Shown here one piece after another: positions 5,374-33,499 of a stretch of DNA of 64,000 nt. This stretch comes from Candidatus Uhrbacteria bacterium. Lineage in GTDB: Bacteria > Patescibacteriota > Patescibacteriia > UBA9934 > GWF2-40-263. Location: positions 81,887 to 145,886 of the forward strand of contig JAHFIQ010000001.1 of the NCBI GenBank assembly GCA_023246355.1. The letters run 5' to 3'. The notes under the pieces were generated by a model that saw only the letters and a program-made list of their open reading frames with translations, did no database searches and was not told where the DNA came from. The translations under genes were made by a program, and so were the position numbers. The stretch's first letter is position 1. The number at the start of each line of letters is the position of its first letter.

Positions 5374-5380
5374 CCTAACG

Positions 5381-6020: not shown

Positions 6021-6032
6021 AAAAGAGTCGAA

Positions 6033-6127: not shown

Positions 6128-6154
6128 GTAACGGACGTTAGAGTATCGTATTCA

Positions 6155-9506: not shown

Positions 9507-9588
9507 AGAATAGGTGGATCAGGGAGACAAGGTGGAACAAGTGGTCGGAATCCGGAACCACCTAGTCTCCCTTGTCTACCTTTCTACC

Positions 9589-10293: not shown

Positions 10294-10401
10294 ACGAGTG
10301 TGAACGGGTGGCACGGTGTCTGACCCTGGCCGGCTAGCGCAGGCCACAGGCCGAGCACCGACAGGGTCTGCACCGTGACAGGACCCGTTCACGGCGATAC
10401 A

Positions 10402-10833: not shown

Positions 10834-10856
10834 ACCCTATTCTACCAGAACCTGAG

Positions 10857-12101: not shown

Positions 12102-14830
12102 GTAGTTCTAGCCTTCTTCTCCTCTTCTCTTTTTTTCAAGTACGCCCGCATCGCGTTCAACTGCGCTTCTACTTTTGCAAACTCCTTGCCTTCATCGGTG
12201 GCTGGATCAACCACAGGATTTACTTTTTCTGCTTCCTTCTTCGTGATTCTATTCAAAATGTTCACGACCGTGGAAGCCTTGTCGACATTCTCGGGTTTAG
12301 CCGCTTCCTTGGCTGCATCAGCCTCTGCTCTGGCCGCAGCTTTATCTTGAGGGCGATTCATGGGATCAGCCGCAGCGCGCTGTGCTGTTTGTTCAGCTCG
12401 ATCTGCGGTCGCTTGTAATTGTGCGGCCACCTGTGACCTTGCCGCTGCAAGATCACGAGCAAGCTGATCCAACTCCTGCGTGACCTTTTCACGGGCTGGT
12501 TCCAATCTTGATTTCTGTTCTGTTTCAACCCTGCCGACATCTCGCTGAACGGCCTCATCCACACCGCGAGTAACACGATTCATGTGTTGTGCTGAACTTG
12601 AACCTGGTTTCATGGCACCAACGTTCTGAGCGGTTTCACGCATGACCGTCACAATTTTCATCCGCTCACTGGGATCCGTAGCTCCATGAAACTTGGCTCC
12701 AAGATTGCTCATGAGCGTCCTGGCACGATTTTCGTCGCCGGCTCGCATCGCCGCCTCTATGGCTTTTCTGATTCCATCAGCGGTTCCTTTCTCACCAAGG
12801 GTCGTCACATTCACACGAGCCAACTCTGCATCATTCATGCGCTCATATTTTTCTCCTTCACCGCTGGTAAGCGCATTCTTCTTTGCGTCGCCCGCTCCGC
12901 CCAGACCCTTTGACACAGCATCATAAGCAGAAAGATACTCCCCATCGGCTCCACGCACATCCGACTTCACATTCCTCAACCGTTCCTGAATGGCTTTATC
13001 TTTCAGGGCATCATCATTCAGGCCTTTGACATCATCCCAAGTGCTGATAAGCCCTGCAGATTTCGTAATATCGGCATTGGATTTTTTGAAGTCGTTAATC
13101 TGATCCAACTTGGCCGCATCGTGTTTGTTATCGTTTGTGAACTCGTTGCCTTTCTGCGCCCAAGCTTTTTGCAATGTTCCATCAGCTCGCGCTTCTTTTT
13201 GCATGCGCTTGTCACCCATGGTTTCATCCAAAAGCGCCTTGTACTGCGCGTCTTCTTTTGCAGAAAGCGATCCGCCACGTGCAACTTGATTGGCGTAGGT
13301 TCGCATGAGGTTCAACTTTTCGTCGCGACCCTTGTTCTTCATGCCTTCCTTAGCAAGCTTCATGTCCTCAGTACGCGCAAGCCCAGCCTGCGCTTTGGAA
13401 CGAGCTTGAACCCCAACACCAAGGCGTTCGAGCGTTCTGAGTCCTGTCACCTTTCCCGTCTTTTGTACGATGCTGCCTGCACCTGTCTTCACAGATTCAC
13501 GAGCAGAAGCATACCCTCGAGCAACAGCCGATGAGCCTGGTAAGTAGCTCGCGACTGTCACAGCGGCAGAAGGAGCGCGATAGGCACCCTTGGCTCCCAA
13601 TCGCAATCCTGCGCCACCAGCTTTAAGACCAAGGCCACCGGCTCCGAGACCCAATGCAGCCGCCCCTTTTGCAAGCACACCACCCCTGGCTTTTTGTAGA
13701 GATTTCCCAAGCACGCCGCCGGACAAAGACGAACACAATTGTTGAGCGGCATCAAACCCGGCAAACAACATAGCCATGCCGATGAGAAAGCTCATGAAAT
13801 GTTGAGGTTCGAGTAACTTAGAAGCAAGGTCAGCAGAGTTCGCTGAACTTACATTAAAACCAGTCTCGGCCGCTATATTTCCTGCTCCAGCTACGGCAAG
13901 AGTCAGCCATAAGAAAAAAGTAAGAACAGGGCCTACACCAACCAAACACTTAAAACGATCCCACCATTTTGCATACGCGTCTGATTGAATGATGCCGCTT
14001 GAACCGCCTGCTCCACCAACAAACCAGGCGAGCGGAGAAATCACCACCAAAATCCACAGACCAATAATACGATAGATCAAAATCACTACCAACATGATGA
14101 GCGTTCCTAAGACCCACAGGGTGAGCAAGACAGACATGATGCCACCACCTAAGTAGTCAAAATTATCAATAGTTTTTCCTGCAGCCGTCCCAACGTCGTT
14201 GAGCGCCTGAATGTTTGTGCTCACCTGATACAATTGATTCAGTCCTAAAAGTTGAATAAAGTTTCCGGCCGCAATCTCACGCAGGGCATTGGCAAAGGTG
14301 AGCATGATCACCTGACCAAAATCGATCATGATGCCACAGAGGGTTTTTGAAAAGTTGATCACGATCGCAAAGGTGAGAAGTTTTGGCACCTGCTGTGACC
14401 ATTGAAACTTGGAGTGACCGAAGATGGTTCCAAACGCTATGATGATGAGCACGATCACAAAAAACATGTTGACTGTGTCGCGCATGATGGCCCAACCAGC
14501 ACTCACCACTTTGTTGGTCACAAAACTGTTATACGTCATGATGGGAACCATGAGGTCAATCATGAGTACAATACCTTGGGTCAAAATGCCTGCAATAGAA
14601 TAGGCAATATTGGCGAGCGTACCTGCAATAGTATCCAAGACGCTCAGTCCACCGAGAGCAGCCGCAGAGGCGCCGGGAGCTGCGGCCCGAGTCATCACCG
14701 GAATCAAAAAAGCAAAAAGAGACGAAACAAAAACACCTCCCACACGACCAAAACGATGCGGAGTCTTCCGCTTCGCACGATCGCTGAGCCAGTCTTTGAG
14801 CGCATGCAGACGCAGAAAAAGCTTCAGCAT
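12098..14830 (-). CDS. VirB6/TrbL/PrgH-like polytopic membrane protein with a long hydrophilic C-terminal domain
   Basis: 910 aa: about 8-10 TM helices in the N-terminal 400 aa, then a ~500-aa charged tail. Assignment is by topology and synteny (VirB6, VirB3, VirB4, VirB8 order) only. Confidence 0.5.
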   Translation of the reverse strand: MLKLFLRLHALKDWLSDRAKRKTPHRFGRVGGVFVSSLFAFLIPVMTRAAAPGASAAALGGLSVLDTIAGTLANIAYSIAGILTQGIVLMIDLMVPIMTYNSFVTNKVVSAGWAIMRDTVNMFFVIVLIIIAFGTIFGHSKFQWSQQVPKLLTFAIVINFSKTLCGIMIDFGQVIMLTFANALREIAAGNFIQLLGLNQLYQVSTNIQALNDVGTAAGKTIDNFDYLGGGIMSVLLTLWVLGTLIMLVVILIYRIIGLWILVVISPLAWFVGGAGGSSGIIQSDAYAKWWDRFKCLVGVGPVLTFFLWLTLAVAGAGNIAAETGFNVSSANSADLASKLLEPQHFMSFLIGMAMLFAGFDAAQQLCSSLSGGVLGKSLQKARGGVLAKGAAALGLGAGGLGLKAGGAGLRLGAKGAYRAPSAAVTVASYLPGSSAVARGYASARESVKTGAGSIVQKTGKVTGLRTLERLGVGVQARSKAQAGLARTEDMKLAKEGMKNKGRDEKLNLMRTYANQVARGGSLSAKEDAQYKALLDETMGDKRMQKEARADGTLQKAWAQKGNEFTNDNKHDAAKLDQINDFKKSNADITKSAGLISTWDDVKGLNDDALKDKAIQERLRNVKSDVRGADGEYLSAYDAVSKGLGGAGDAKKNALTSGEGEKYERMNDAELARVNVTTLGEKGTADGIRKAIEAAMRAGDENRARTLMSNLGAKFHGATDPSERMKIVTVMRETAQNVGAMKPGSSSAQHMNRVTRGVDEAVQRDVGRVETEQKSRLEPAREKVTQELDQLARDLAAARSQVAAQLQATADRAEQTAQRAAADPMNRPQDKAAARAEADAAKEAAKPENVDKASTVVNILNRITKKEAEKVNPVVDPATDEGKEFAKVEAQLNAMRAYLKKREEEKKARTT

Positions 14831-15017: not shown

Positions 15018-17018
15018 TCACAATTGAGAATTGTCCGTGTAACCGTTGCCGATGCCCTGAAGTCCATCACTGGGATCCCAGGACACGTAGATGAGCCACT
15101 CCTCCCAGCTGGTGTCGTTGTCCATGAGCTCGCACAGGTCACTCCCACCGGAACAGAACCCATCGTTCTGCCACCAGTACCAGTTGCCCATGCTCGAATC
15201 CGGATCGTCACCGTCCGTGCCTTCAGCGTTGATGAGACTCATCTGCACTTCACAGTCGTAGGCAAACTCCGAGAAGTCGATCTCGTAGTAGCCACCACTG
15301 TTTGCGTAGACAAGGTCACCGCTTGAGAGCGTGCCGTTGTAGCATCCGCCATTGCCGTAGACGTAGGCGTCTTCACCGTCGATCGCGGAAGTGAGCCAGA
15401 GGTCGTCGGCCATGAGCAAGGTTTCGTAGAGTCCGTCTCCATCGCTGTCCACGATGCAGGCGTCTTCCCCATCGCAGTCCGTGTTGGTTTCAGGATCTTC
15501 GACTTCCTCTTCCTCATCGGTGTCTTCCTCATCAGCTTCTTCTTGGTCAGATGCGTCAGATGGGTCGGATGCGTCCGTATCCTCGTTGGATGCGTCCGCG
15601 TCATCACCATCTTCATCCTCGTCTTCATCCGACGTCGAGATCTCCTCGTCCTCGCCGTCCGATGAACCGCCGGTGCTGCCGCCACTGACCAGATCCAGTC
15701 CGCCGCCACAGGTCGCGACTGCATCCTCGTCCAAGCACCACTGATCTGCCGCGCAACTCCCGACCGTATCGAGTTCGCCCACGGTGCCGTCTGCCACCGT
15801 GATGATGTTGCGACTCAGATACCCCATCATGAGGTACATGTCCCAACTCACGATGGGCAGTGCGACTCCGCCGGAAACTTCCCACACGTCCGAGGCATCC
15901 TCTTCTTTGACGAGCGTCCCGTCGCGCAGCCCAACGTAGGAACTGCTCGGCGGCCAGGTTTCCATGTAGTCGCTGGAATCCGAGTACGTATCCGGATAGT
16001 TGTCCGTCCCGTAATCGAGTCCCCAGGACTCCATCACCGCCTCCCAGCCGATCTCGCGCACGCGGGCGCGATAGCGATTGGGGTCCGTGCTGGTTCCCAC
16101 GAACAGCCAGAGCTGCTCTTCGGTATCAAACGCGGCCTGCACCCAGCCAGTCTGCGTGATGTCGTCGCCCTCGCCCAGGCAGTCGAGTTCCTCGTCGGAG
16201 ATGATGACGACTTCCTCAAAGTCCCAGTTGTGACCCCAGAAGACGTCCTCGTTCTCGATCCACCTGGCCGCACCATCTTCCAGGACGTAGACGCGGGCAT
16301 TGTCACCGGTCTTCACGAGCGTCCCATCCGGATGCCAGAGCGGTACCGAAAGCTGGCTCTCGTAGAAGTCCCCGTCATGCGGATCACCTTCACTGGCGAT
16401 CCCGCAGACGAAGTCCTCCGAGTCGATCATCTGGGCCTCCCCGCGATCGCTCGCATTGGCTGCCCAGTACAGCGTGGGAATCGACACGCCGTTTCCGGCA
16501 TCCTCGCTGGCATCACCTTCATGAAGCCCGATGTGGATGTGGTCGCCGCTTGAGGCGCCCGTGTTTCCCTCGTACCCGATCAGCTCTCCCTGTCCGACCT
16601 CGTCCCCATCGCCGACAAAGATGTCGGAGAAGTGGCCCAGCACGATGTAGGTGCCATCACCCAGATCGATGTTGACGTGGTAGCCGAAGCCAGAGGTGGC
16701 ATCGAGATGCACGTAGGCCGTGCCCGAGATGGGCGCGTAGACTTCCTCGTCTGCGTAGTTGTTCGTATCCAGATCGATGTCGTACTCGGTGGACGTCTTC
16801 GAGTGGCTGTGAGAGCCGTGGGCTCCCTGCGTACACATGGTCTCGTGACCAGATTCCAGAGGAAGCTGGAGCGCTCCCTCACCTCCCCCTTGATCGGAGG
16901 AACCATTCGTCTCACGGGACACATCGAAGGGCTCGCAGCCCGACATGACGATGATCGTCAAAGCGCTCACAATGAGCGTGCTCACAAACAGGTAGCTTGG
17001 CAAACGATGGAAAAACAT
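15018..17018 (-). CDS. Lipoprotein with peptidase M23 domain, long D/E/S-rich acidic linker and C-terminal domain
   Basis: Likely start MFFHRLPSYLFVSTLIVSALTIIVMSGC (lipobox). M23 motifs GYHVNIDLGDGTYIVLGHF and GNTGASSGDHIHIGLHEG. Acidic low-complexity stretch of about 80 aa. GC about 63%. Confidence 0.65.
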   Translation of the reverse strand: MFFHRLPSYLFVSTLIVSALTIIVMSGCEPFDVSRETNGSSDQGGGEGALQLPLESGHETMCTQGAHGSHSHSKTSTEYDIDLDTNNYADEEVYAPISGTAYVHLDATSGFGYHVNIDLGDGTYIVLGHFSDIFVGDGDEVGQGELIGYEGNTGASSGDHIHIGLHEGDASEDAGNGVSIPTLYWAANASDRGEAQMIDSEDFVCGIASEGDPHDGDFYESQLSVPLWHPDGTLVKTGDNARVYVLEDGAARWIENEDVFWGHNWDFEEVVIISDEELDCLGEGDDITQTGWVQAAFDTEEQLWLFVGTSTDPNRYRARVREIGWEAVMESWGLDYGTDNYPDTYSDSSDYMETWPPSSSYVGLRDGTLVKEEDASDVWEVSGGVALPIVSWDMYLMMGYLSRNIITVADGTVGELDTVGSCAADQWCLDEDAVATCGGGLDLVSGGSTGGSSDGEDEEISTSDEDEDEDGDDADASNEDTDASDPSDASDQEEADEEDTDEEEEVEDPETNTDCDGEDACIVDSDGDGLYETLLMADDLWLTSAIDGEDAYVYGNGGCYNGTLSSGDLVYANSGGYYEIDFSEFAYDCEVQMSLINAEGTDGDDPDSSMGNWYWWQNDGFCSGGSDLCELMDNDTSWEEWLIYVSWDPSDGLQGIGNGYTDNSQL

Positions 17019-17445
17019 GGCATCACACGGTCTTTTGAACGTACGTAACTGGGTCAAGATGAACCGGAATGGATCAACTTCCCCGGGCGGCGCAATAAGC
17101 CTCTTGCACCGACCCATGGACGTCGACCACACTCTCCAAAGTCACGGGTCCAGAAGTCTCTTGTCCTCCCCACCAACAGACTTCCGTTAAGCTTGGACCT
17201 GTTCTCTGGCACCGCAGCACCGCCGCTTGGAATCATTGAGGGAACCTTCGATTCCCTGAACGCAACCGTTCTTGTTCCGTTGCATGCAAGTGATGCAGAT
17301 GTGTGTGCGATCTACAATCATCAAATCAAAAAACCGCTCATGGGTCAAGCAGTTTTTCGCTAAATTTAGATATTTTTTGTTAATGCTCTTTTTACACGTG
17401 TCGATGCCTTTCAACAAAATATCAAACATTGCTTTTCTTTTTTGT

Positions 17446-22081: not shown

Positions 22082-22195
22082 ACCTTACCCACTTTTTGTT
22101 AGAAAAAGCTGATTTTACGGCCTGAGTTGGGAGCCTGGCTCCCAACTTGGTGCTGGCGGGGTTGACAAAATCACCAAAAAGGCGCTAAATGGAAG

Positions 22196-22228
22196 TAGAG
22201 ACTAGCTCTTTTCCGGCCGAAAGGCCAC
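22196..22228 (+). promoter_or_regulatory. Sigma70-like promoter for the 22239 lipoprotein gene, with upstream hairpin
   Basis: TTGACA, 17-nt spacer, CTAAAT; the preceding hairpin gttgggag/ctcccaac lies at 22127-22147. Confidence 0.35.
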
Positions 22229-22238
22229 GGAGTGCATC

Positions 22239-22853
22239 ATGACCAGTTCCCTGCGCTTTGCGCTTCTTCCCCTGGCCCTCGGGCTGGGATGCAATGGCCT
22301 TCCGGGAACGGATGGCCAGGACTGCGAAGGTTCGGCCTGCACGCAGGACTCCGGGGACGGCAACGACCCCGAGACCTACGTCACCGCGGCCCACATGGTG
22401 GCGCCGTACGGATGGATGGGCGACTTCAGCGCCGACAACGACACGGTGTGCGAGAACGCGGCCGAATGCCTGTTCGAGCCCGACGACCCGGACACCTACG
22501 AGCTCGAGCTCCAGGGAGATCTCTTCCTGTGCGTGAGCCAGGAGACGCCGCTCACCGAAGCCGACGCTGCCGCGACCACGGATCTCACCTGGGAAGGCGA
22601 AGGCCAGTGTGGTCTCGCGCCGGATGGTCAGTACAGCCAGTTCGACGTCAAGACCGATACGCACGACTGGATCGGTTACGACCAAGTGCGGATCCAGATC
22701 GACTCCTGGGGAGCTCCGGTCACGAAGGACGCCTTCTCCTGGGAAGACTCCGACTACCTGCTCGAAGGTACGATCGCCAGCGACCTCTCCTCGATCACCT
22801 ACCACCTGGCAGCTGGATCGAACGAAGAGACCGCGACCATCACGCTGCAGTAG
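22239..22853 (+). CDS. Hypothetical lipoprotein (acidic, GC-rich gene)
   Basis: Signal peptide with lipobox ALGLGCNG. 204 aa. GC about 68%. The overlapping ORFs on both strands are high-GC artefacts. Confidence 0.55.
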   Translation: MTSSLRFALLPLALGLGCNGLPGTDGQDCEGSACTQDSGDGNDPETYVTAAHMVAPYGWMGDFSADNDTVCENAAECLFEPDDPDTYELELQGDLFLCVSQETPLTEADAAATTDLTWEGEGQCGLAPDGQYSQFDVKTDTHDWIGYDQVRIQIDSWGAPVTKDAFSWEDSDYLLEGTIASDLSSITYHLAAGSNEETATITLQ

Positions 22854-22871
22854 ACACCGGTCGCTGCATAT

Positions 22872-22900
22872 CCCCGACTACGACAGTCGGGTTTTATTAT
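22872..22900 (+). terminator. Rho-independent terminator
   Basis: Stem cccgact/agtcggg followed by ttttattatt, directly after the lipoprotein stop. Confidence 0.5.
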
Positions 22901-22901
22901 T

Positions 22902-23029
22902 GAGACCTCTGCAAAAGCCGCGATCTTTGCTTTCACGGGCACCCAGGCACCTCCTCAACGTAGTTTTCACTACGTTTCGGAGGCTGCCAGCCCGTTCAAG
23001 CAAATCTCATCGACTTTTGCAAAGGTCTG
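22902..23029. repeat. Long-hairpin intergenic repeat element, copy 2
   Basis: gagacctctgcaaaagccgcgatc ... core acgggcacc ... caagcaaatctcatcgacttttgcaaaggtctg. Lies between convergent gene ends. Confidence 0.7.
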
Positions 23030-23074
23030 TATTGTCTATATTATCCCGAACCAAGTGAGGGATGACGCAGAGCG

Positions 23075-26000
23075 TCAATCCGGCGTAACAGCAATCGTGC
23101 CGTCAAAGTTGATCCAAGGATTCGCTGTTCCTGCTCCGCCATAGTCCACACACGAACTTGAATCTCCTTCAGAGGGACAGCTCTCAATATTACACTCTCT
23201 AACACTCGTCCCATCCTCCGTCTCCCCTGAAAAACAATTATCCGTACCATCCGCACCCGCGTCACAAAACCCAGTGCACCAGCCCCAGTTGTCAGTCACA
23301 CTCACGCGAGGCTGGAAGACACAGGCACCGCTTGAATCCAAGCACGGCGAGTTGAGTAAACGGGTTGTGTCTGTATCGTCATACTCACAGGTTCGAGAGG
23401 TGAGCAGCGCCGTATCGCCGTCTGTGCAAATGTAGTCGTGAGCGAAGTTGATGTAGGACGTGGAGCAGGCTGTGCTCGATGTTCCAAATTCAACTGGATC
23501 GCTACCACAAATTTCTTGCTCTGACGTCGCATTCAACCCGCGATGGTTTTGATAGAAGTTGTCTTCTGCTGTGGAGCCACTTTGAGAACCCGTCGGCCAG
23601 TGCGCGCCAAGACCCGTAGGTTGGACCCCACCAAAATCATCTCCCCAGTCGATCACAATCCGACGAATCGGCATCTGGTTAGAATTCGCGTAGGTAAAGA
23701 AGCTCACGTTGGCATGATACGTCCCCTCTCCTTCCAAATCTCCCCCGTCGACCTCTCCGATATTGAACTTCCCTTCCGTGTCCTCGATACATTCAGTACC
23801 CACACAATCTCCCACCGACACCACCGTCGGCGGCTCAGGTTCATTATCATCGTCGCCCACGGAACGCGTGTCCCAGAGCCAAGGTTCGTCTGCCGCTAGA
23901 TCTTCATATGCAACAGGGGTCCAACTCCCAAATTGCTCTCCTGTATTAAATCCAGTTGTCAACGCGCCATCAGGAACTTCTTGAGCTGCCACACCTTCAT
24001 ACCCGTCTTCAAATTGAATCATGCCATAGATGCGACCAAACAATTGTGATAGTCGGCTAATCGCATCATCAATTGTGTCGTTCTCTGTAAAAGTCGTGTA
24101 TCCACTCGTTGGAACAACGGAATCAAACGTCATCGAAAAATCACGGAAACTGCGAGCGTCCTCACCAGCCGTACTGGTAAAACTGCTAGCAGAGGCATCG
24201 CAGGCCGTTGTTGTTTCAACAGGTGGAATCTGGTAGTCGTCGTTTCCTTCTGAACACATCACAGGAGTGTGAGCCCAAGGGTCAGGATTGTCATCAGTTG
24301 TAAATTCCACTGCCAATTCTTCAGGATCAGTCGCCACACCATATGGAGAAAGAAGCGTGTCATAGGTATACCCAAAGTGGGCATCATCTCCACCTGGATC
24401 AGCAATAGAAAACGCTGCTGAAGAACTCTCCCACAGTCGATCGGTCCAAGCCGCATTGTAGGAATCGAACGGGTAGTCATCTTCATTTGGTTCTGTGGCA
24501 GAAACTTGAACAAGGGTCGAACAAGCTGGATATCGGGTAAACACCCATGCTGCCAGAGAGTCGACTCCAGTAATTCCATCAGCATAAGAATAGTAATATC
24601 CACAGCTCACCAAATTATTTCCATAACAGGTCGTTGGATCTTCTGTGGTTGGAATACCGTCCTCCAACAAATCATAAGGTGACGTAAACTCGTCAAGACT
24701 ATCACCTAAGACACCTCGTGCTGCACAATCGTCATACAATTCAAATGCATTATCAAATCTCCATGGCGCCAACACATATACTTCTACATTGAGACCAGGG
24801 TACCAGTGGTCACCTACATCACTTGTGTTAACCGAATAATCTACCGTGTAATAATTCCCAGGAGACAAGCAGCGATCTCCATCATCACCCTCTGCGTCAG
24901 TTGCTGTCTTGTAAGAAAATTTCGGTACACAGAAATAGGGACAATCATCAGTCGTAATAGACGCTCCACAATACTGACCGCTTGCTCCACCATTTAGATC
25001 ATGATACGTGGAGTTATCTTGACCTCCACACCCTGTCATCACGGCAAAATAACCTTCTGGACAAAACACAGAGGAAATACAGTCATCGTTTGTAGAATTT
25101 GAGGATGGATCATTCGCCGTTGCCAACCAAACATCCCATGTCGTCTCTGCATCATCTTGCTCAGCTTCTGTTCCTTCGTGATCGTAATACAATCCACCAT
25201 CACAATAGTCATCGACTTCCTCTGCACATAAAATGTTCGATGTCCAAACACTATACGCCGCCTCAATATCCGCACAGTAATACGTCTCCTGTGGCGTGTA
25301 GCCGGCGGAGGTGTATTTGCCGTACAAATCGGTCGAGCCGGCGAGTTGGTCCACCGGGAGCCAGCTGAGACAGGCTTGGTCTTCTGTGTCAGAAGAACCG
25401 AGCGTCTGGATCGAGGTATCTTTTTCAATGCAGTAGCCTTCCCAGCCGTACATCGTGGAAACACCGCTCAACGCCGAGCAGGTGCCCACTTGCGTAGTAC
25501 CAATGGAACAATCATCGTCATCAAGACACGGAAGTCCTGGAACAGGTCCACCTGTACAAATGCCATCTGGAACCTCGCCACTCTGGCTGAACGTATCTGC
25601 CCCTGTGCCTGCCTCATAGTAACGGTATCCGGAACCTTCTCCGTATTCCACTTTATCGTAGCTACAATCACAGTCCACTGGCTCGCCGTATAAATCTAAT
25701 CCACACACCGCAGAATCTTGGAACCCTCCCACATAGGCATAGGGCAGAGAGTACCAAGAAGCTGGCAGACCTCCTGATCCGGAAGCGCTAAACGTCGCAT
25801 CCGTTGGAGACGTGCCATCAGCCGTGCTGTATCTGAAGGTCTTCCAGTCATCAACGACCGACGTTGGATACGGCGAATCGATCTCTGGATACCCTCGGCA
25901 GCCCATCTCACGGCCAGAGGTCACTTCGCCGCCAGAAATCGCCAAAGTATCGGCATACCCATCGCCGTTGTCGTCCTTGATGTCGGACAGACATCGGTTG

Positions 26001-29000
26001 TTGAAGCACTCACCGGTGGTTGAGGTGGAAGCTGGAACACAGGTGGCACCATACGCATACGCGCTACAACTTGTATCTGCATCGCAAGCTTCAGTGGCAA
26101 CAAAATCATTTTCAGACGTGAACTTATCTACACAGACAAACTGCACAGGATCGCAGAAATACGTATGAAGCCCAATGTCGGTCGTGTTTGTTGTGCAATC
26201 GGAATTGGTACCATCACTGGAATTATCATTATCGGGATTACACGAACAGTCGGAATTAACACAATTCGTTGTTCCACTCGCCTGACAATATCCCACCACG
26301 CAGGCCTCAGAACCTGAACAGTCATCATCGGATGCACACGCGCTGCCAGAGTCCTCGCACATTCCAATAGAACACGATCCTCCATTGCCATCACCAGACT
26401 CTGTCGCATCACATGGTCCGGCGTTATAGACGAGACGATAGTCCGTGTCGGAATTATTTGCGCAAGAGTAGTAGCAATATCCAGAATCGGAACAGATACC
26501 AGAGTACGAGGCACAGTCAGCATTCGTCGTACACGCTGTCGTGCTAACTCCGCAATCTTCGTACGTATTACAGTACGTAGGAAGTCCAGCATCGTTGGTA
26601 AGTTCGGTCGACGTCGTTTCCATGCACACCGTCGTTGGCTCCAAATTAAACTGCGTATACAAATCCGTCGGGAGCTGATTGGGGATGGTGCCGCCTGACC
26701 ACTCCTCGCCAAACCAATTCACGTCACGTGCTGAATACTGATAGGCACCCAAAATTTCTGGATCGCTCGAATCCCACTGTGTACATGTTGAGGTATCACC
26801 CTGGTTGGTTCCCTCCACGCACAGATTGATGGAATCACAAATGGTGTCGTAGGTTGAAGACGTTGTGTTCCAACTGGTCTTGGATGATTCACATGCCAGC
26901 CACGCTGAACACGAGCGATCACGATTCACTTTGATGACTTCGTTCGCATCGTCATCAAGAGCATATGTCGCGGACACGTCCTCACAGGTTGCGGTCACGT
27001 CTTCTCCCAAATTGGTTGTAAGCACAGGGCAGTCGTCATCCACCAAACAAGAACGTTCATAAACTTGTGTGGAAGAAACTTCTGTGGCAGAAGGCGTGTC
27101 AATCGAATCTCCATCTTCGACTTCATACGAACAGCGTCGTGCGCACAAATCTACGGTCTCGCTTGTGAGTCCCAGCGCATCTGCATCTGAGGAGGAAACC
27201 GTAAACTCACCACCCTCGTCCAACTCACAGTCGATCGGATCCTGAAGGGAATTTTGCTCTTCGCCAAAGAAGACATCCGCATGCATGGACACCACATACG
27301 AGGCCCCGGCGTTATAGCTCAACTCCGAGTCGGTTGTGTTATTGAATACGGCGCAGCCAAACTTCTGGCTCACTTGACCATCACAGCGCTGGGTATCGGT
27401 AAGCGTGTCTTCGCTGAGCAAATCATCATTGGTGAAGTAGTACGACTCTCCGTCCTCACCCCCGCCGCCAGCCGTGTCCACCACATCCACAAACTCGGTA
27501 CACAGATCATACGCGTCTTCACAGGCCGCCACCCAACCGTCATAGTCATCGTCACCATTGGCCCACACACCAAATTCATTGCCATTGATGAGGTAGGAAT
27601 CATCCTCGTCTGGATCAAAGTCGCCGCTTGCATCACTGTCAGTCCAATCGCACGGCTCCGTTGTGCCAGATCTAAACCAGCCTGAGTACTCCTGATTGCC
27701 GATCGTAACCGAGTCTTGATACTCACAGGTCTTGTCCAGTGGATCCTTAAAATAGAAATTCCCGTCTTGGGTGGAATCCCATTCTTCACAGAATAATTCT
27801 TCGTCACTGCACAGCAGCGTGTCGTAATCTTCAGGCAGATTCAGGTAATACACGGACTCAAAACTATCGACCTCTGACTGATCTTGATTGAACGTTGGCA
27901 AACCGAGCTCCTCACAACCCATGGCTTCCTCATCACATTCATAGGTGTCGTCGGCAACGAGATACACAGGAGCATCCGTGGGAACAATCACTGTTTCGGG
28001 CCCAAAGACAACCGCGTAGTGAACTGTTGAGCTCACAGCTTCAGAGGGCAATGGTTCCTCCAAAACCGTATCCGCATCAAATGTACAGTACGAAGAACCC
28101 GAAGTAATCGTGCAGTACTCAACTCCGTCGATCTCGCAGGTCGTGTTCGCGCCGACGGTTTCTGGCTCATCAGAAAAGTCCGTGTCAGAGGAATACATGC
28201 ACCTGGCGTTGTAGACCTGCTGGTAACTCGAATCAGAATTCCCTGTATCAAAGAATCCTTCACATCCAACGACATCCTCGGAACACAAATCTGAGAACTG
28301 ATACAGATCCGCGTCCACGCCGTTCTGATCCGTGTACGCTTCACAGCCAAGATAATACTGATCAGACTCTACTCCGTCAGCCGTCGCATCACAGGTTGAT
28401 GGCACCACCCACGAGTCTTTGATGAGCGTGATGTCTTCTTCGACCTGTTTGAGCGAGATGTTGTCCACGTAGGCTTCCGCAGCTGAGGCCACTCTAAATC
28501 GCAGGACCGCGTTCTCGTCAAAATCTGCGTAATCACTTGTGTCCAGTGGACCCAGGCTGAATAGCTGCCAGGAGCCCGTGAGTTCCACAGGTGTTAAATC
28601 TGAGGCAGAAGAAATGGTCGCACTTGGGTTTGACAGATCATGCGTGTCGCCCGATCCGCCCTCCTCCTCAAACGTGACATACATGTTCCCGGATCCCTTC
28701 GCCCAGAAGTCCACGACAAACGTTTTGCCACCCACAAGATCAGACGTGAGCGCTCCACAACTTTCCTCACTATCCTCAATCGTACAGTCTTCATCGGCTG
28801 AACCATCGGCATCTACATCATTTTCAACGTCACAGCCAGAGTCGCCTATCGTTCCTCCATTTCCTGTACAGGTTGTTGATGTTCCTGCTGCATCTCCTGC
28901 CTCATCATACGTTTCTGTTGTAGTTGCACTGTCCAAATAAATCTGGATCGTCTCAAACCCAGCCAAGCCACCGGTTGCAGAAACATAGAGTGAATGACCG

Positions 29001-32000
29001 TCCGTCGCGATGGATTCATTACTCACAGACAAACTTGAAGTCGAGCTGCTTGTTTCTGAAATCACAAAATCATCGTACGTTCCATCTTCAAACGTCTCGT
29101 CCAAAATGGTCGTAGCATTTCGTCCTGTGCCGCCGGTATATTCTCGACACCCGCTTTGTTCAGCCGGACACTCGGTGCTTTCATCGGCCAACACGTAGTA
29201 GCGGCAGAAGCCTTGGTCCGTCCAATAGCCACCCGAGTCTTCACAGTCGGTTTCTGTTGACTCGTCTTTGCGATACGGCGCGCAGTCGTTGGAAATCGAA
29301 ATCGTGTCTGGATATTCCCGGTAATGAATGTTGCCTTCGGTATCGAAAAACTCTCGGCAGTCGGGATTATCAAAGATGTCATCGTGCTCGTCACAGTCTG
29401 CGTTGTCCCAGACGTCCGCTGACATATTCCCTGCAAACGAATCGTTACAGGAGACGTCGTTTTCTGATGTCATGGTGACATGCGTACAAGGCGCCAAGTC
29501 TGGCGAGTCTTCCACATAGCCAGAGCCCGAGAATGTTCCGGAGCTGGTCACGACATTTGATTCAAGCAAATACCACGTCTGCAACTGATAGCCTTCGTTG
29601 TCAGAACCTTCCCAGGTGAAAAACGTCGCTGGCGTGGTAAATTTGTCACTGCTATCTGCAATATCCTCACTCAAACAAAATCGCAGTGAAGAATAATTCT
29701 CAGTCCCTTCTCCACCTGCATCCACGGCATCAAGGTTGGTGTAGGAATCGCACCCAATGTATTGCGATGAACACGACGTGGCGCGATCAGCAATAAAGTA
29801 GAGCGGAAATTCCTCCGAGTCATAATCCGTGGCTTCCTGTTTGTACGTGGTGTAGCCCACACATTCCTCAGGACACTCGTCCAGTTCCGAGATAATCGCT
29901 GGGACATCTGGATCTCCATCTTCAGGTGTGTAGAGATTGCACCCAACTTCTTGGGCGCTGCAGACCTGAGCGTAATCATCACACTCAGAAGGATCCGTAT
30001 CAGCATCTCCTGTGCATCCAAGGTAATCTGGCGCGACTTGATAATAGACTTCGGTAGCGCTGGTGTTGTAATCCTCAGTAAAGTTGCTCACGTCTTCTCC
30101 AAGCTCCAGTTGCACGGCATCAAGCAAAATTTCATCTGAGTCAAATTTCAACAGTCCTTGCGCTACGTCTTCTGGCGTCGTAAATGTACAATCAAACTGC
30201 GTCCACTCTCCAGAAGTAAATTGTGAACTATCAGTTGGATCAGCTGTGATGACATACGATGAGGTTCCTTGCACACAGTCACCTCCATACGAAGTTCCTG
30301 CGACGGAGACGGCTTCACCAAATTCATCGTACAAATACAAGTAGGCATACGTTTCAGCCGCCGCAGTGTTGTCCGCACGAGCGGAAAAACTCAATGTGTA
30401 AAAGTTGTTCGGTGAGAGCGAAACGTATTGCTCAAGAATGCTCGCGTCTGTGCTGAAACTGAAACTTCCAGATACAGGACCATCATCTTCCTGCATCGTC
30501 TGAGCAGACGTTGCTGCGGATCCGTTGGTCCAGTTGTCTGGAACATCGTCCTCGTCTTCGTCAGATTCAAAACTCGGGTTCTGGATTTGGTTAAACACCA
30601 AATCATCGTTAAATTCATTCAACCGTGTACAGCCTATATCATCCTCGGAACATTCCTCTGCTTCGTTAGTGAAATAGATCCGATCGTTGTAGGCGTAGGA
30701 CGTGTTTGAATAAATCTCTCCTGAGTCAGACGTATAGCTGTAGCTCACAGGCTCCTCAGAATCTCCTGTGCTCAGTTGATACTTCCAAGCTGAATCGTGA
30801 GTGGCTGTGGTGTACGTTTCCCCGTCAGGAAGAAACTCATAGGTATCGTCACTGTCGTCATCAGCGGTGCCTGCATCTTCATAATGCTTCTGCGTGGCAT
30901 ACCACCGGCAACCGGCATTGTTGGAATCGCATACTGAATAATCCACACTGCTTACGCGATAAGCTGCCTTGTCTCCGGTAAACGTATTTTCAAACGAAAG
31001 ACATGTTGAATATTCCTCAGGACATTCATCCCCGCGAAAGCGCCAAGTATTTTTTTCCCTCACGCAATACCCGTAACCGTCGGAACAATTGCCGTCGTTG
31101 TCCTCCCCGATACAGCTTGGTGCATCAACGCATGAACTGGCACGGCCTGGCGTCTGAGCCCCGATGCGAATTTCTCCGTTGGCAATCGCACGACATTGAG
31201 TCTCAGGATATTTCAAAACCCAGTTTGGATCGATCAGATGGCACCACTCATCCGCACCAGAGCTTGAATTGGCCGGACCGATTGTCCCGTCTTCCGTACA
31301 ATCATCAAATCCATCGACAATATCTTGCAAGGTCGCTGGAGATCCACTGTCATTGCGAAGTGCGGCCAGCTCCCACCCAACAGGAATCACACGAGCTTTC
31401 CTGAGCTTCACCAAGTTTCCATAGCAATACCCATACGTATAGCAGTAAGGATCTTGGTTGGCTGAGGTGTCTTCAGGAGAAATGAGCGGCCAGTCGCCGT
31501 TCAATAACCCCTCATCAATCGCCTCCTGCACAGTCAGTGCGGCAACAGCGCCACTGGACCCACGACTGACGGCTGCCATAAAATTGGTGTCCATGACACA
31601 ATTATTGAGACCTCGGTTACTCACATTCCCTGACACACAGACGACAAATTCTCCTAATGCATTGTATTGTGTGGTGGCAATCGGGGAGGACGAAAAAATA
31701 CTCGCAAACCGCGCTTGAGCGGTTTCTTTACTTCCCTCAGCGGTAGCTTCAACATCAAATGGATCGATGTCCAAAGAAACATCAAATAATCCAGTATAAA
31801 TTCGGGAAAACAAAGTTGAGAGCAGCGTGTTGGTAAACGTCGAGGCTGTTGTCAGCGCTAAGCCTCCGATAAGATCGCCCGCACCAACCAGGTCTCCAAC
31901 CTTTACTTTCTCTTGATCAGAAGCCGATAATTTTTTGTGAAAATCTTCAGTCACCGTCGCAGAAGGTGTTTTTACATCCCCCGTAATAAAATCTGTCACC

Positions 32001-32803
32001 GGCTTATATTCATCCTTGGTGATGCCCATGAGCTCAAGCAATTTGGCTTCCCGCACCTTTCCATCAATGGCAATGTTGGTTCGAAGTGCTGCACTGATTT
32101 CGTTTTGACCTGGTTTCAAGGACTCGGCGAATTTGCTCAACACAGCTTCTTGAATAGCCTCTGGATCGGTCACGGTTTGATAGATGTTCGTAAAAAATGA
32201 CCCCCAGGCTTTTCCGACTTCCAAAATATCACATCGAGGCGCTGAAGGTTGATATTTTTGTTTGATCCCAATCGCCAGAGCAAGCTGAAGAATCCCGTCT
32301 GGGGAACAGAGATTGAATTTGTATCCAAGGTCTCCTGTAAGATCCGACATCGTTGCCACAGCCTCGCCCGCGGCCTCAAGTCCCAATTGACCAAAGGCTT
32401 CTGCCGGGGTCTTGTTGTAAAAAAGCGAACCCTCGCCAGGACCTCCTGAGGCAACGGCCACGGCCGCTTCATAAGCGAGACGATCAAGGACAAAACGAGA
32501 AAGATTCATGAGCGATTGGACAAGCGCCACACGAAAAGCCGGCGAGGCAATTTTTTTTCCGATGGTATCCAACACCTCGCCGATCGCATCCGGAGGACAG
32601 GTACTGGGAACAGCAGCTGTTTTTAAACAGACGGCTCGTGAACCCTTCACCACAACCTCGGCAGTTGTTTGGGCAGGGTTGTCTTGGGCTTGCACTCCGC
32701 GAGCCACAAAAATGCCCAAACTCACAAAACTAAACACAAACACCATTAAGAATCCTGCTGTGATCAATCGTTTTGTGTGATGGGATGCGTTGGTCATACG
32801 CAA
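23075..32803 (-). CDS. Giant (3242 aa) secreted/surface protein, Cys-, D/E-, S/T- and G-rich
   Basis: Single uninterrupted ORF with an N-terminal signal/TM (LITAGFLMVFVFSFVSLGIFVARG). Many Cys-rich segments. NPSFESD-type motifs suggest carbohydrate-binding-like modules. The antisense ORFs are artefacts. Confidence 0.8.
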   Translation of the reverse strand: MRMTNASHHTKRLITAGFLMVFVFSFVSLGIFVARGVQAQDNPAQTTAEVVVKGSRAVCLKTAAVPSTCPPDAIGEVLDTIGKKIASPAFRVALVQSLMNLSRFVLDRLAYEAAVAVASGGPGEGSLFYNKTPAEAFGQLGLEAAGEAVATMSDLTGDLGYKFNLCSPDGILQLALAIGIKQKYQPSAPRCDILEVGKAWGSFFTNIYQTVTDPEAIQEAVLSKFAESLKPGQNEISAALRTNIAIDGKVREAKLLELMGITKDEYKPVTDFITGDVKTPSATVTEDFHKKLSASDQEKVKVGDLVGAGDLIGGLALTTASTFTNTLLSTLFSRIYTGLFDVSLDIDPFDVEATAEGSKETAQARFASIFSSSPIATTQYNALGEFVVCVSGNVSNRGLNNCVMDTNFMAAVSRGSSGAVAALTVQEAIDEGLLNGDWPLISPEDTSANQDPYCYTYGYCYGNLVKLRKARVIPVGWELAALRNDSGSPATLQDIVDGFDDCTEDGTIGPANSSSGADEWCHLIDPNWVLKYPETQCRAIANGEIRIGAQTPGRASSCVDAPSCIGEDNDGNCSDGYGYCVREKNTWRFRGDECPEEYSTCLSFENTFTGDKAAYRVSSVDYSVCDSNNAGCRWYATQKHYEDAGTADDDSDDTYEFLPDGETYTTATHDSAWKYQLSTGDSEEPVSYSYTSDSGEIYSNTSYAYNDRIYFTNEAEECSEDDIGCTRLNEFNDDLVFNQIQNPSFESDEDEDDVPDNWTNGSAATSAQTMQEDDGPVSGSFSFSTDASILEQYVSLSPNNFYTLSFSARADNTAAAETYAYLYLYDEFGEAVSVAGTSYGGDCVQGTSSYVITADPTDSSQFTSGEWTQFDCTFTTPEDVAQGLLKFDSDEILLDAVQLELGEDVSNFTEDYNTSATEVYYQVAPDYLGCTGDADTDPSECDDYAQVCSAQEVGCNLYTPEDGDPDVPAIISELDECPEECVGYTTYKQEATDYDSEEFPLYFIADRATSCSSQYIGCDSYTNLDAVDAGGEGTENYSSLRFCLSEDIADSSDKFTTPATFFTWEGSDNEGYQLQTWYLLESNVVTSSGTFSGSGYVEDSPDLAPCTHVTMTSENDVSCNDSFAGNMSADVWDNADCDEHDDIFDNPDCREFFDTEGNIHYREYPDTISISNDCAPYRKDESTETDCEDSGGYWTDQGFCRYYVLADESTECPAEQSGCREYTGGTGRNATTILDETFEDGTYDDFVISETSSSTSSLSVSNESIATDGHSLYVSATGGLAGFETIQIYLDSATTTETYDEAGDAAGTSTTCTGNGGTIGDSGCDVENDVDADGSADEDCTIEDSEESCGALTSDLVGGKTFVVDFWAKGSGNMYVTFEEEGGSGDTHDLSNPSATISSASDLTPVELTGSWQLFSLGPLDTSDYADFDENAVLRFRVASAAEAYVDNISLKQVEEDITLIKDSWVVPSTCDATADGVESDQYYLGCEAYTDQNGVDADLYQFSDLCSEDVVGCEGFFDTGNSDSSYQQVYNARCMYSSDTDFSDEPETVGANTTCEIDGVEYCTITSGSSYCTFDADTVLEEPLPSEAVSSTVHYAVVFGPETVIVPTDAPVYLVADDTYECDEEAMGCEELGLPTFNQDQSEVDSFESVYYLNLPEDYDTLLCSDEELFCEEWDSTQDGNFYFKDPLDKTCEYQDSVTIGNQEYSGWFRSGTTEPCDWTDSDASGDFDPDEDDSYLINGNEFGVWANGDDDYDGWVAACEDAYDLCTEFVDVVDTAGGGGEDGESYYFTNDDLLSEDTLTDTQRCDGQVSQKFGCAVFNNTTDSELSYNAGASYVVSMHADVFFGEEQNSLQDPIDCELDEGGEFTVSSSDADALGLTSETVDLCARRCSYEVEDGDSIDTPSATEVSSTQVYERSCLVDDDCPVLTTNLGEDVTATCEDVSATYALDDDANEVIKVNRDRSCSAWLACESSKTSWNTTSSTYDTICDSINLCVEGTNQGDTSTCTQWDSSDPEILGAYQYSARDVNWFGEEWSGGTIPNQLPTDLYTQFNLEPTTVCMETTSTELTNDAGLPTYCNTYEDCGVSTTACTTNADCASYSGICSDSGYCYYSCANNSDTDYRLVYNAGPCDATESGDGNGGSCSIGMCEDSGSACASDDDCSGSEACVVGYCQASGTTNCVNSDCSCNPDNDNSSDGTNSDCTTNTTDIGLHTYFCDPVQFVCVDKFTSENDFVATEACDADTSCSAYAYGATCVPASTSTTGECFNNRCLSDIKDDNGDGYADTLAISGGEVTSGREMGCRGYPEIDSPYPTSVVDDWKTFRYSTADGTSPTDATFSASGSGGLPASWYSLPYAYVGGFQDSAVCGLDLYGEPVDCDCSYDKVEYGEGSGYRYYEAGTGADTFSQSGEVPDGICTGGPVPGLPCLDDDDCSIGTTQVGTCSALSGVSTMYGWEGYCIEKDTSIQTLGSSDTEDQACLSWLPVDQLAGSTDLYGKYTSAGYTPQETYYCADIEAAYSVWTSNILCAEEVDDYCDGGLYYDHEGTEAEQDDAETTWDVWLATANDPSSNSTNDDCISSVFCPEGYFAVMTGCGGQDNSTYHDLNGGASGQYCGASITTDDCPYFCVPKFSYKTATDAEGDDGDRCLSPGNYYTVDYSVNTSDVGDHWYPGLNVEVYVLAPWRFDNAFELYDDCAARGVLGDSLDEFTSPYDLLEDGIPTTEDPTTCYGNNLVSCGYYYSYADGITGVDSLAAWVFTRYPACSTLVQVSATEPNEDDYPFDSYNAAWTDRLWESSSAAFSIADPGGDDAHFGYTYDTLLSPYGVATDPEELAVEFTTDDNPDPWAHTPVMCSEGNDDYQIPPVETTTACDASASSFTSTAGEDARSFRDFSMTFDSVVPTSGYTTFTENDTIDDAISRLSQLFGRIYGMIQFEDGYEGVAAQEVPDGALTTGFNTGEQFGSWTPVAYEDLAADEPWLWDTRSVGDDDNEPEPPTVVSVGDCVGTECIEDTEGKFNIGEVDGGDLEGEGTYHANVSFFTYANSNQMPIRRIVIDWGDDFGGVQPTGLGAHWPTGSQSGSTAEDNFYQNHRGLNATSEQEICGSDPVEFGTSSTACSTSYINFAHDYICTDGDTALLTSRTCEYDDTDTTRLLNSPCLDSSGACVFQPRVSVTDNWGWCTGFCDAGADGTDNCFSGETEDGTSVRECNIESCPSEGDSSSCVDYGGAGTANPWINFDGTIAVTPD

Positions 32804-33499
32804 CTATTCCGAAGGAGTTTGTACAAGCGCATCGAGCTCGCCTAAGGCAGCAGCCTCTTCAAGCGCGCCGTTCAAATAATCTTGAAGGGTCTGGTCGTCG
32901 ATCGAATCGAGTTCTTCCTGGCTCATGCCAGCTTCCAAAAGCGCGGCACGAATTTGTTCGACCGTTGCGGACTTAAAAAAGGCTTCGACATCTTCAGGAG
33001 AATCAAACTGTACAGAACCGGCTTGAAGCAATTGATCTTCGCCAAGTCCTTGGATGAGACCTTCCACAGAGGCGCCGTTTTCTCCCACTTCCTCAGACCC
33101 TGTCACAAAAGAGCCGCAGTCTTTTCCCTCTGGACAATTTGGATTGTTTCCTGAAAAAACTTCTTGCTTGTCGTCATAGCCGTCTGAATCTGAGTCGCTT
33201 ACGTAGGGTGAGGTCTTGTACACATACAACTCGTCGTAATCGACCAAGCCGTCGCTGTCCGTATCTTTTGTTTTGGATTCTTCCAGAGCCTGTGCCTCGC
33301 GCTGTTCTGAGGTGAGATAGGGTTGGCCTGTTGCCAATGCCGCGATCTGTTCTTGGATCGGACGAGCAAGATTGGCGCCAAAAGATTTAAACCCAAAAAA
33401 GAAACCGCCAAAACCTAAAAACATTAAAAGCACGAACGCGAATTTCTGCTCCGCGCTCAAGGCTCGAGGTGGCCTTGTTCCTAATCGTCGTGTGGCCAT
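32804..33499 (-). CDS. Membrane-anchored protein with thrombospondin-type-3-like calcium-binding D-rich repeats
   Basis: Likely start MATRRLG at 33499. TM FAFVLLMFLGFGGFFFGF. DTDSDGLVDYDELYVYK and SDSDSDGYDDKQE (DxDxDG) motifs. Its stop abuts the giant gene start, indicating an operon. Confidence 0.55.
   Translation of the reverse strand: MATRRLGTRPPRALSAEQKFAFVLLMFLGFGGFFFGFKSFGANLARPIQEQIAALATGQPYLTSEQREAQALEESKTKDTDSDGLVDYDELYVYKTSPYVSDSDSDGYDDKQEVFSGNNPNCPEGKDCGSFVTGSEEVGENGASVEGLIQGLGEDQLLQAGSVQFDSPEDVEAFFKSATVEQIRAALLEAGMSQEELDSIDDQTLQDYLNGALEEAAALGELDALVQTPSE

Follow-up and report, generated by a model that had tools for sequence, protein, structure and literature searches.

We analysed a stretch of 64,000 nucleotides from a Candidatus Uhrbacteria bacterium (assembly GCA_023246355.1, contig JAHFIQ010000001.1), the whole of which is referred to below as the window. 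The subject of this study is a pair of genes on its minus strand: a giant gene encoding an acidic, Cys-rich protein that is probably secreted and, directly upstream of it, a small partner gene encoding a predicted membrane protein with two TSP3-type repeats. Their positions are as follows.

23075..32797, minus strand: giant gene, 3240 amino acids (aa) plus stop, 349 kDa, pI ~4.05, 140 Cys
32804..33499, minus strand: partner gene, 231 aa, single-pass membrane protein, directly upstream of the giant gene

The reading frame of the giant gene is open from 23075 to 32803 (9.7 kb, 3242 codons counted from the first TTG), as reported in an earlier note on this DNA, which had described a single open reading frame (ORF). 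The protein is likely to start at the ATG at 32797, which gives 3240 aa, because the N-termini of its homologues align with MTNASHHTKRL. Public gene calls (3,223 aa) begin at an internal ATG (M18; region 32746..32797) and lose the charged n-region of the signal peptide.

The composition of the protein (D 11.1%, S 10.0%, T 9.6%, G 8.6%, E 7.2%, C 4.3%, K+R 3.7%) agrees with the earlier description of an Asp/Ser/Thr-rich product. The 'hundreds of Cys' of that description are in fact 140, and the Cys spacing is not the one announced: C-x-C occurs only twice, whereas C-x6-C (17 times) and C-x5-C (13 times) dominate, frequently in the form ...C-x5-G-C-x2-[YF]-T. The protein is indeed acidic, but its acidity is spread over the whole chain rather than gathered in low-complexity tracts, the only runs of at least four D/E residues being DEDEDD, DEDD and DDDD. 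Acidity and a low Lys/Arg content are common to other predicted exported proteins in the window, and are thus not special to the giant gene. No paralogue was found in the window, the large ORFs of 1659, 910, 899 and 704 aa being unrelated.

The giant gene belongs to a widespread family

The earlier note had considered that the ORF might be an assembly chimera. An identical protein (3,223-aa call) was found in at least 4 independent assemblies, three from ENA (ERZ27276474, ERZ27280116, ERZ27296333) and one from Logan (SRR14366766), on a total of at least 10 contigs. Among the matches listed, at least 120 relatives were full-length (2,900-3,500 aa, 33-72% identity, coverage mostly ~90-100%), all of them annotated as 'hypothetical protein' in Candidatus Uhrbacteria or Patescibacteria metagenome-assembled genomes, and the full-length orthologues are colinear with the giant protein from end to end. 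At the DNA level, Tandem Repeats Finder (TRF) detected one trivial 15-bp array only, no direct repeat of at least 30 nt was found in the gene, leaving no repeats able to mislead an assembler, and the GC content is that of the surrounding sequence. Since the identical product recurs independently, the orthologues are full-length and the DNA is free of repeats, the objection falls; the probability that the gene is an assembly chimera or a pseudogene appears negligible to us.

Repeats were not found at the protein level either. All-against-all comparison of 140-aa windows with hhalign revealed two weak pairs only, one between aa 990-1019 and aa 1602-1631 (hhalign probability 92) and the other between the tails of the two carbohydrate-binding-module (CBM)-like domains described below. 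Tandem or internal repeats were thus rejected by TRF, by the direct-repeat search and by hhalign. With so little internal similarity, the giant protein is a string of different, non-repeated modules, in contrast to adhesins built from repeats.

When GTDB species genomes were scanned with a sequence pattern, at least 584 encoding stretches were identified, some of which bear placeholder titles such as 'uncultured Gammaproteobacteria'. Across the family, records that carry a name come almost entirely from Uhrbacteria or Patescibacteria. An exhaustive profile search with aa 95-645 returned 1,325 clusters (50% identity), and E was <= 1e-30 for 1,111 of these. In the best 150 of these 1,325 clusters, nearly all matches begin at about aa 70-110; the full-length members are ~3,000 aa long and the remainder are shorter (~500-2,300 aa). 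No paper describing the giant protein family was found in a literature search.

The giant protein is probably released by signal peptidase

A single hydrophobic segment, at the N-terminus (aa 9-37), was detected in the giant protein.

32687..32797, minus strand: probable Sec signal peptide, aa 1-37, with K9 R10 in the n-region, an h-region at aa 11-32, and V35-Q36-A37 followed by Q38

This segment had been taken in the earlier note for a signal anchor. However, 171 of 196 full-length relatives (87%) carry an [AV]-x-A motif where the h-region ends, compared with 13% in control windows, and the residue that follows it is Q in 87 of the relatives. By contrast, the motif was found in none of 108 partner-family proteins after their hydrophobic segment. 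These observations point to a cleavable Sec signal peptide, probably cut after VQA37 and before Q38, rather than to an anchor. The conserved signal peptidase I motif suggests in turn that the giant protein is released from the membrane, the small partner being the anchored component of the pair.

Other means of attachment were looked for in the giant protein. It has no LPXTG motif (the nearest is VPTSG at aa 2895, and the C-terminus is hydrophilic) and no C-terminal transmembrane segment by hydropathy, and Pfam and NCBIfam searches with the window protein and 14 relatives did not reveal SLH, CWB2 or other surface-layer (S-layer) or cell-wall-binding domains. In an alignment of 31 relatives with identity down to 36%, 122 of the 140 Cys residues are conserved in at least 80% of the sequences, and most of them are invariant. 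This pattern of Cys conservation, as read from the alignment, is far beyond chance. Together with the lone N-terminal hydrophobic segment, it supports the proposal of an extracellular product.

The partner gene is always found upstream of the giant gene

The partner protein carries the following features.

33380..33442, minus strand: transmembrane segment, ~aa 20-40, hydropathy peak, predicted uncleaved signal anchor
33161..33265, minus strand: two TSP3-type DxDxDGxxDxxE repeats, aa 79-113, DTDSDGLVDYDE and DSDSDGYDDKQE

The upstream membrane protein with DxDxDG repeats announced in the earlier note was therefore found as described, with one transmembrane segment and two repeats. The protein is predicted to be a type II (N-in/C-out) uncleaved membrane protein with an acidic helical tail. 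The repeats (aa 79-90 and aa 102-113) are invariant in three divergent orthologues at D79, T80, D81, D83, G84, D87, D89 and E90 of the first and at D102, S103, D104, S105, D106, G107, D110 and E113 of the second, and a C-x5-C pair is invariant too. The match of the window protein to TSP3_bac (PF18884) lies below the gathering threshold (14.2 bits for a cut-off of 25, E 0.04); a precomputed PF18884 match exists for ~20 of 120 listed members of the family. The latter comprises 169 homologues of ~230 aa, and the named records are from Uhrbacteria, Parcubacteria or Patescibacteria.

Two consecutive DxDxDGxxDxxE repeats on an extracytoplasmic segment recall the bacterial TSP3 proteins (PF18884), such as MtsD and CglD of Myxococcus. 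However, the NCBIfam matches to MtsD/CglD are weak (18.8 bits for an equivalog cut-off of 800), the partner is not a member of that group, and it differs from TSP3 proteins in having only 231 aa, two repeats, a single transmembrane anchor and an acidic helical tail.

A partner homologue was present directly upstream of the giant gene, on the same strand, in all 54 related loci that had enough upstream DNA. In the window the partner stop codon directly precedes the TTG (gap of 0 nt) and is 6 nt away from the ATG of the giant gene, which confirms that the two genes abut, and the gap is 2-6 nt in the three loci that were read. No promoter-like site was found in or near the junction. The lone terminator-like match is located inside the partner coding sequence, away from the junction, and is within chance expectation. 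The strict same-strand adjacency and the lack of a promoter-like site at the junction suggest that the two genes form a tight unit and are, as the earlier note had proposed, probably co-transcribed. In our reading the pair is a vertically inherited envelope module; the named records in which it has been seen to date are, with few exceptions, those of Uhrbacteria or Patescibacteria.

The giant protein contains two CBM-like modules and many Cys-rich regions

Domain searches with Pfam and NCBIfam were combined with profile searches and structure prediction. AlphaFold2 (AF2) models were obtained for aa 95-1240 (model 1, 41-row alignment, mean predicted local distance difference test score (pLDDT) 65.6) and for aa 1456-2650 (model 2, mean pLDDT 63.9). 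The resulting regions are listed from the N-terminus to the C-terminus.

31673..32515, minus strand: all-helical N-terminal domain, aa 95-375, AF2 pLDDT 30-60
30878..31645, minus strand: most conserved block, aa 385-640, small helical disulfide-rich domain followed by Cys-rich hairpins
30092..30601, minus strand: CBM-like beta-sandwich 1 (CBM1), aa 733-902, begins with NPSFE
29123..29845, minus strand: beta-rich disulfide domain, aa 985-1225, pLDDT mostly >90
28433..29110, minus strand: CBM-like beta-sandwich 2 (CBM2), aa 1230-1455, begins with ETFEDG, 4-Cys insertion
24848..28432, minus strand: central region, aa 1456-2650, 1,195 residues, 75 Cys, beta-rich
23828..25240, minus strand: most variable region, aa 2520-2990, 11-33% mean identity per 50-aa window
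23078..23830, minus strand: conserved C-terminal Cys-rich domain, aa 2990-3240, with NQMPIRR..DWGD and DNWGWCTG, without membrane or sortase anchor

The earlier note had read carbohydrate-binding modules from several 'NPSFE-type motifs'. NPSFE itself is present only once, at aa 740, and a related ETFEDG opens the second module at aa 1234; the modules themselves, two beta-sandwiches of the CBM4/9/16 type, were recovered by Pfam, profile search and Foldseek taken together. CBM_4_9 (PF02018), the sole Pfam family found in the giant protein, matched aa 736-887 of the window protein just below its cut-off (25.2 bits for 25.9, E 2.3e-05) and matched 13 of 15 family members at E <= 0.1, with a best E of 2.4e-10. 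The NCBIfam scan gave nothing. Compared with PDB sequences, the full-length family profile retrieved only the CBM4 of laminarinase 16A (1gui, E 0.007) for CBM2 and a CBM16 (E 0.1) for CBM1.

The region of CBM1 was modelled as a jelly roll (~aa 725-945, pLDDT 80-90). When model 1 was compared to the PDB with Foldseek, the 50 matches listed consisted almost entirely of CBMs or of comparable beta-sandwich domains from larger proteins; a phage tailspike domain, CBM16, CBM4 and CBM22 headed the list (E 2e-6 to 4e-4). The AF2 model of CBM1 superposes on solved CBM16 (2zey/2zew), CBM4 (1gui) and CBM22 (4xup) structures with E values of 3e-6 to 1e-4 and target-normalised TM scores of 0.54-0.69, the CBM16 matches giving E ~3e-6 and 0.66-0.69. 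The modules resemble CBM_4_9, CBM4, CBM16 and CBM22 in their jelly-roll fold, their N-x-x-F-E-type start and their D-x-x-Q-L-E final strand. They differ from typical members in that no glycoside hydrolase was detected alongside and in their conserved Cys (C841 and C870 in CBM1) or Cys-bearing insertion (CBM2).

The remainder of the protein had no match in Pfam, PDB or BFVD searches, so that the domain annotation suggested in the earlier note yielded the two CBM-like sandwiches only. Conserved Cys pairs were noted near the helical N-terminal domain (C164/C189 and C387/C400). Within the most conserved block, whose 15 Cys are all invariant, aa 385-535 form a small helical disulfide domain in model 1 (pLDDT 80-90), and Pfam and PDB sequence searches with aa 385-640 gave no match. 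No separate fold for aa 385-535 or for aa 985-1225 appeared among the 50 PDB matches listed for the whole of model 1. Model 2 contains stretches with pLDDT of 80-95, and Foldseek found no structural relative for it (best E 1.1 in the PDB and 0.45 in BFVD). This central region includes a Cys-dense stretch (aa 2058-2270) with 26 Cys in C-x2-D-x-D-C ... G-x-C motifs. The C-terminal family profile retrieved nothing relevant from PDB sequences at E <= 10. A C-terminal PKD domain, guessed from WGD ... H.Y ... V.D..G, was rejected, as 15 members gave no Pfam PKD match at E <= 0.1 and no PDB match was obtained. A Rhs/YD or teneurin-like toxin was rejected as well, with no Rhs/YD match and a C-terminal 250-aa region that is conserved, not polymorphic.

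The CBM-like modules raise the possibility of a secreted polysaccharide- or wall-degrading enzyme, in which they would target an unrecognised catalytic domain, as in the giant genes of predatory Omnitrophota. Modules of the CBM4/9/16/22 type usually accompany glycoside hydrolases, from which the matching PDB domains were indeed taken, and ~2,500 residues of the protein have no assigned function. Giant genes have also been linked to cell-wall degradation (bioRxiv 10.1101/2023.11.21.568195). However, Pfam and NCBIfam scans of 15 members, the PDB profile search and Foldseek on the 2,341 modelled residues all failed to reveal a catalytic family, and the dense disulfide modules look structural. We grant this explanation only a slight probability.

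Most of the giant protein is under housekeeping-like constraint

The divergence of the giant protein was compared with that of neighbouring housekeeping genes within the same genomes. Over 58 loci, mean identity to the query was 44% for the giant protein, 48% for KsgA, 49% for Sua5, 52% for the epimerase and 64% for RF1. The giant protein therefore diverges about like KsgA and Sua5, indicating a housekeeping-like constraint on ~3,100 residues. This in turn argues for an envelope component that belongs to the conserved core of the lineage, and against a fast-evolving host-specific adhesin.

Conservation is not uniform along the chain. In the most conserved block (aa 385-640), mean identity is 50-70% per 50-aa window among the 31 relatives, and aa 2300-2520 form another conserved block inside the central region. 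Variable parts are found at aa 650-700, in the interior of CBM1, at aa 1250-1350, at aa 2050-2350 and, above all, at aa 2520-2990, the variability being clear-cut only for CBM1 and for aa 2520-2990. The interior of CBM1 is fast-evolving (26-32% mean identity to the query per window). Within aa 2520-2990, 13-49% of the rows are gapped, and the last 50-aa window rises to 46% mean identity. Even towards P0002, a relative 71% identical overall, identity falls to 48-60% in this region and reaches 72% in its last 100 aa.

These variable parts bear on the possibility, raised in the earlier note, of a strict host-attachment adhesin, an N-terminally membrane-anchored, projecting giant whose main job would be to bind a specific host cell. 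The presence of CBM-like modules and the variability of CBM1 and of aa 2520-2990, near the distal end, would suit such a protein, and the long h-region could serve as its anchor. Giant membrane proteins have moreover been proposed for host attachment in Vampirococcus (PMC8080830) and in Peribacteria (PMC4736985). Against this stand the [AV]-x-A cleavage motif of most relatives, the non-repetitive architecture and the housekeeping-like divergence of a single syntenic orthologue, which differs from the strain-variable adhesins of PMC4736985. A literature search on the lifestyle or epibiont status of Uhrbacteria returned nothing, which we also counted against this explanation. All in all, we consider it unlikely.

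Lineage-wide, single-copy, housekeeping-like conservation would instead agree with an S-layer-like or sheath scaffold, self-assembling on a partner pedestal and with a purely structural or protective role. A pI of ~4, a probable Ca dependence and the conserved neighbourhood of housekeeping genes point the same way, and Luef et al. are said to have imaged S-layers on cells of the candidate phyla radiation (CPR) by cryo-electron microscopy in 2015. However, classical S-layer proteins are typically of 40-200 kDa and nearly Cys-free, none of the S-layer domains was found by Pfam or NCBIfam, and self-assembly finds no support in the data. The variable CBM1 and aa 2520-2990 also suit a binding role better. 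A scaffold of this kind is, in our opinion, decidedly unlikely.

Comparison with known surface proteins

The organism belongs to the small-genome CPR bacteria, for which giant surface proteins have been put forward as candidates for attachment (PMC4736985, PMC8080830), as the earlier note had pointed out. In Peribacteria, large exported Cys-rich proteins were proposed to serve in attachment or rigidity (Anantharaman et al. 2016, PMC4736985). Like them, the giant protein is a large, exported, unusually Cys-rich CPR protein without functional annotation. The Peribacteria set is however multi-gene and strain-variable, with an average of ~1,655 aa, 7% Cys and some similarity to FG-GAP or Myxococcus repeats (PMC4736985), whereas the giant protein is a single orthologue of ~3,100 aa with 4.3% Cys that is always paired with a TSP3 protein; the comparison is one of descriptions, not of homology. 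The giant protein thus fits the descriptive class of large Cys-rich exported CPR proteins, which is not a homology family.

The Absconditabacterium Vampirococcus lugosii encodes giant membrane proteins of 1,392-4,163 aa, for which a fibrous coat and host contact were proposed (PMC8080830). These are likewise giant surface proteins of a small-genome CPR bacterium, but they carry WD40, PKD, integrin or fibronectin domains, whereas only two CBM-like domains were found here. In Saccharibacteria, surface proteins predicted as adhesins are listed among the essential functions (2024 review, PMC11665869).

Repeat-built adhesins (RTX/BIg proteins such as SiiE, LapA and MpIBP, or Bap/SasG) are also giant, acidic and probably Ca-binding surface proteins. 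They typically comprise tandem arrays of Ig-like repeats, tens in number and almost identical, contain few Cys, and leave the cell through type I secretion systems or are attached by sortase. The giant protein, in contrast, is non-repetitive at both the DNA and protein levels, Cys-rich and probably Sec-exported. It lies outside the repeat-adhesin, LPXTG, S-layer, PKD and Rhs families, whose defining features it does not have.

Genomic neighbourhood and possible link to type IV secretion

Distant relatives share the gene order RF1, epimerase, (Sua5), KsgA, small protein, giant protein. The giant gene is followed by a gap of ~1 kb. Public annotation places a 204-aa gene at 22082..23074; we found only Arg-rich ORFs there, on both strands, with no homologue in 78 related loci, hence no conserved gene directly downstream; the stretch may carry the remains of a gene or be non-coding. 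Beyond the gap lie a 309-aa ORF, a Ser/Thr kinase, seryl-tRNA synthetase (SerRS), an M23 peptidase, a 910-aa ORF and a cluster resembling a type IV secretion system (T4SS) with VirB4. This T4SS-like cluster (693..14830, mostly minus strand) also contains unannotated ORFs of 414 and 910 aa, and the following genes were recognised in it.

7398..9506, minus strand: VirB4/TraG-type P-loop ATPase
9589..10392, minus strand: weak TraC-like ORF
693..1847, plus strand: ORF with a below-threshold T4SS_pilin match and an M15 peptidase domain

The proximity of this cluster, 8-25 kb downstream and on the same strand, with its VirB4/TraG-like ATPase and TraC-like ORF, suggests another role for the giant protein, that of a mating or contact adhesin of the monoderm-type T4SS of Patescibacteria, functionally analogous to PrgB. 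In 26 of 33 related loci a homologue of the M23 peptidase, and in 21 of 33 a homologue of the 910-aa ORF, is encoded no more than 10 kb downstream of the giant gene. A PrgB-like adhesin was not found for the Patescibacteria T4SS (PMC12102498), which leaves room for such a function. However, the genes in between have housekeeping or regulatory functions (SerRS, Ser/Thr kinase), and the T4SS linkage may therefore reflect the general synteny of small genomes, as may that of the M23 peptidase. VirB4 is within reach in 3 loci only. The giant protein has no sequence or structural likeness to PrgB or to other T4SS components, so that a possible functional analogy, given the position of its gene ~8-25 kb from the cluster, is its sole likeness to PrgB-type adhesins. 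We hold this role to be very improbable.

Several other features of the window were noted. The M23 peptidase (704 aa, 15018..17132, minus strand; D+E 22%, Cys 2.1%) is a possible wall-remodelling companion. An acidic protein of 899 aa (51708..54407, plus strand; D 14.5%, C 3.2%) has four MopE-type metal-binding motifs and FG-GAP repeats. It is encoded in a GC-richer stretch (0.578 for ~0.51) and resembles the Cys-rich exported proteins described in Peribacteria. A very acidic, Thr/Ser-rich ORF of 1,659 aa (58925..63904, minus strand; D 9.9%, T 11.3%, K+R 1.8%, Cys 0.1%), without credible Pfam domain, may be a second giant exported protein of different build. The recG gene is seemingly split into two adjacent ORFs in different frames (3198..5242, minus strand), with the wedge and DEAD domains at 3935..5242 and the Helicase_C and RecG C-terminal domains at 3198..3929; the split may be genuine or may stem from a frameshift or a sequencing error. 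Finally, the cumulative GC skew declines from position 1 to a minimum at ~58-60 kb and then climbs, and the genes to the left of this minimum are nearly all on the minus strand; a replication origin near 58000..60000 would fit both the skew and the strand bias. T4SS loci of Patescibacteria are often origin-proximal (PMC12102498).

A model for the gene pair

The reading that we favour is that of a Sec-exported surface protein, stabilised by disulfides and probably by Ca, held by its TSP3 partner and making glycan contacts. We put it forward tentatively, at a little under an even chance. The two genes would be expressed as one unit. The 231-aa partner would insert as an uncleaved type II protein, exposing its two putative Ca-binding TSP3 repeats and its acidic helical tail outside the cell, while the giant protein would be exported by Sec and cut by signal peptidase I after V35-Q36-A37. 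About 60 disulfides, formed from the 122 conserved Cys, would then lock it into a long non-repetitive chain made of a base of helices, numerous small Cys-knotted modules rich in beta structure, and the two CBM4/9/16-like sandwiches. With no anchor of its own, be it of the membrane, sortase or cell-wall type, the giant protein would be kept at the cell surface by docking on the TSP3 partner, non-covalently and probably in a Ca-dependent manner. The partner is the obvious candidate for such a tether, which would suggest why the two genes are inseparable. The giant protein would finally join a surface coat or fibres and make glycan-based contacts with the own wall of the cell or with another cell, specificity being provided by the fast-evolving face of CBM1 and by aa 2520-2990.

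Several observations weigh against this model. Cleavage is suggested by a motif, and the h-region is long (~21 residues) and could be that of an uncleaved anchor. The interaction between the two proteins is deduced from gene adjacency. The N-x-x-F-E and D-x-x-Q-L-E motifs of the CBM-like modules sit on the first and last strands and may serve the fold of the sandwich instead of binding a ligand. About one third of each AF2 model has a pLDDT below 50, and with predicted TM-scores of 0.33 and 0.42 the inter-domain geometry is unsettled. Finally, no disulfide-forming enzyme or oxidoreductase was found among the ORFs scanned in the window.

A bolder proposal is that the pair constitutes a lineage-defining envelope machine, in which a TSP3 pedestal carries a 345-kDa secreted protein of largely new disulfide-knotted folds and which works as a T4SS contact adhesin or as a general cell-engagement organelle. 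We see this as a long shot. If it were true, the housekeeping-like conservation would mean that an invariant glycan is recognised, not a variable host protein.

The family is distinguished by a lineage-wide single syntenic orthologue with housekeeping-like conservation, ~120 fixed Cys, an obligate TSP3 partner and more than 1,000 residues without structural relative. Patescibacteria (CPR) represent a large share of bacterial diversity, and little is understood of their envelope construction and of their contacts with other cells outside a few cultured Saccharibacteria. In this group the giant gene is present in hundreds of Uhrbacteria species genomes, where it is among the largest genes and accounts for ~1% of the coding capacity of genomes of ~1 Mb. 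Because of its size, spread and conservation, its ~120 conserved Cys and, the two CBM-like modules excepted, its lack of relatives in Pfam, PDB or BFVD, the giant protein is a well-defined target for structural biology, cryo-electron tomography, proteomics and tests of attachment through glycans, and the fact that it is strictly paired with a very small TSP3 membrane protein provides a concrete docking hypothesis. The existence of the family would also imply that these bacteria possess an efficient extracytoplasmic disulfide-forming system.

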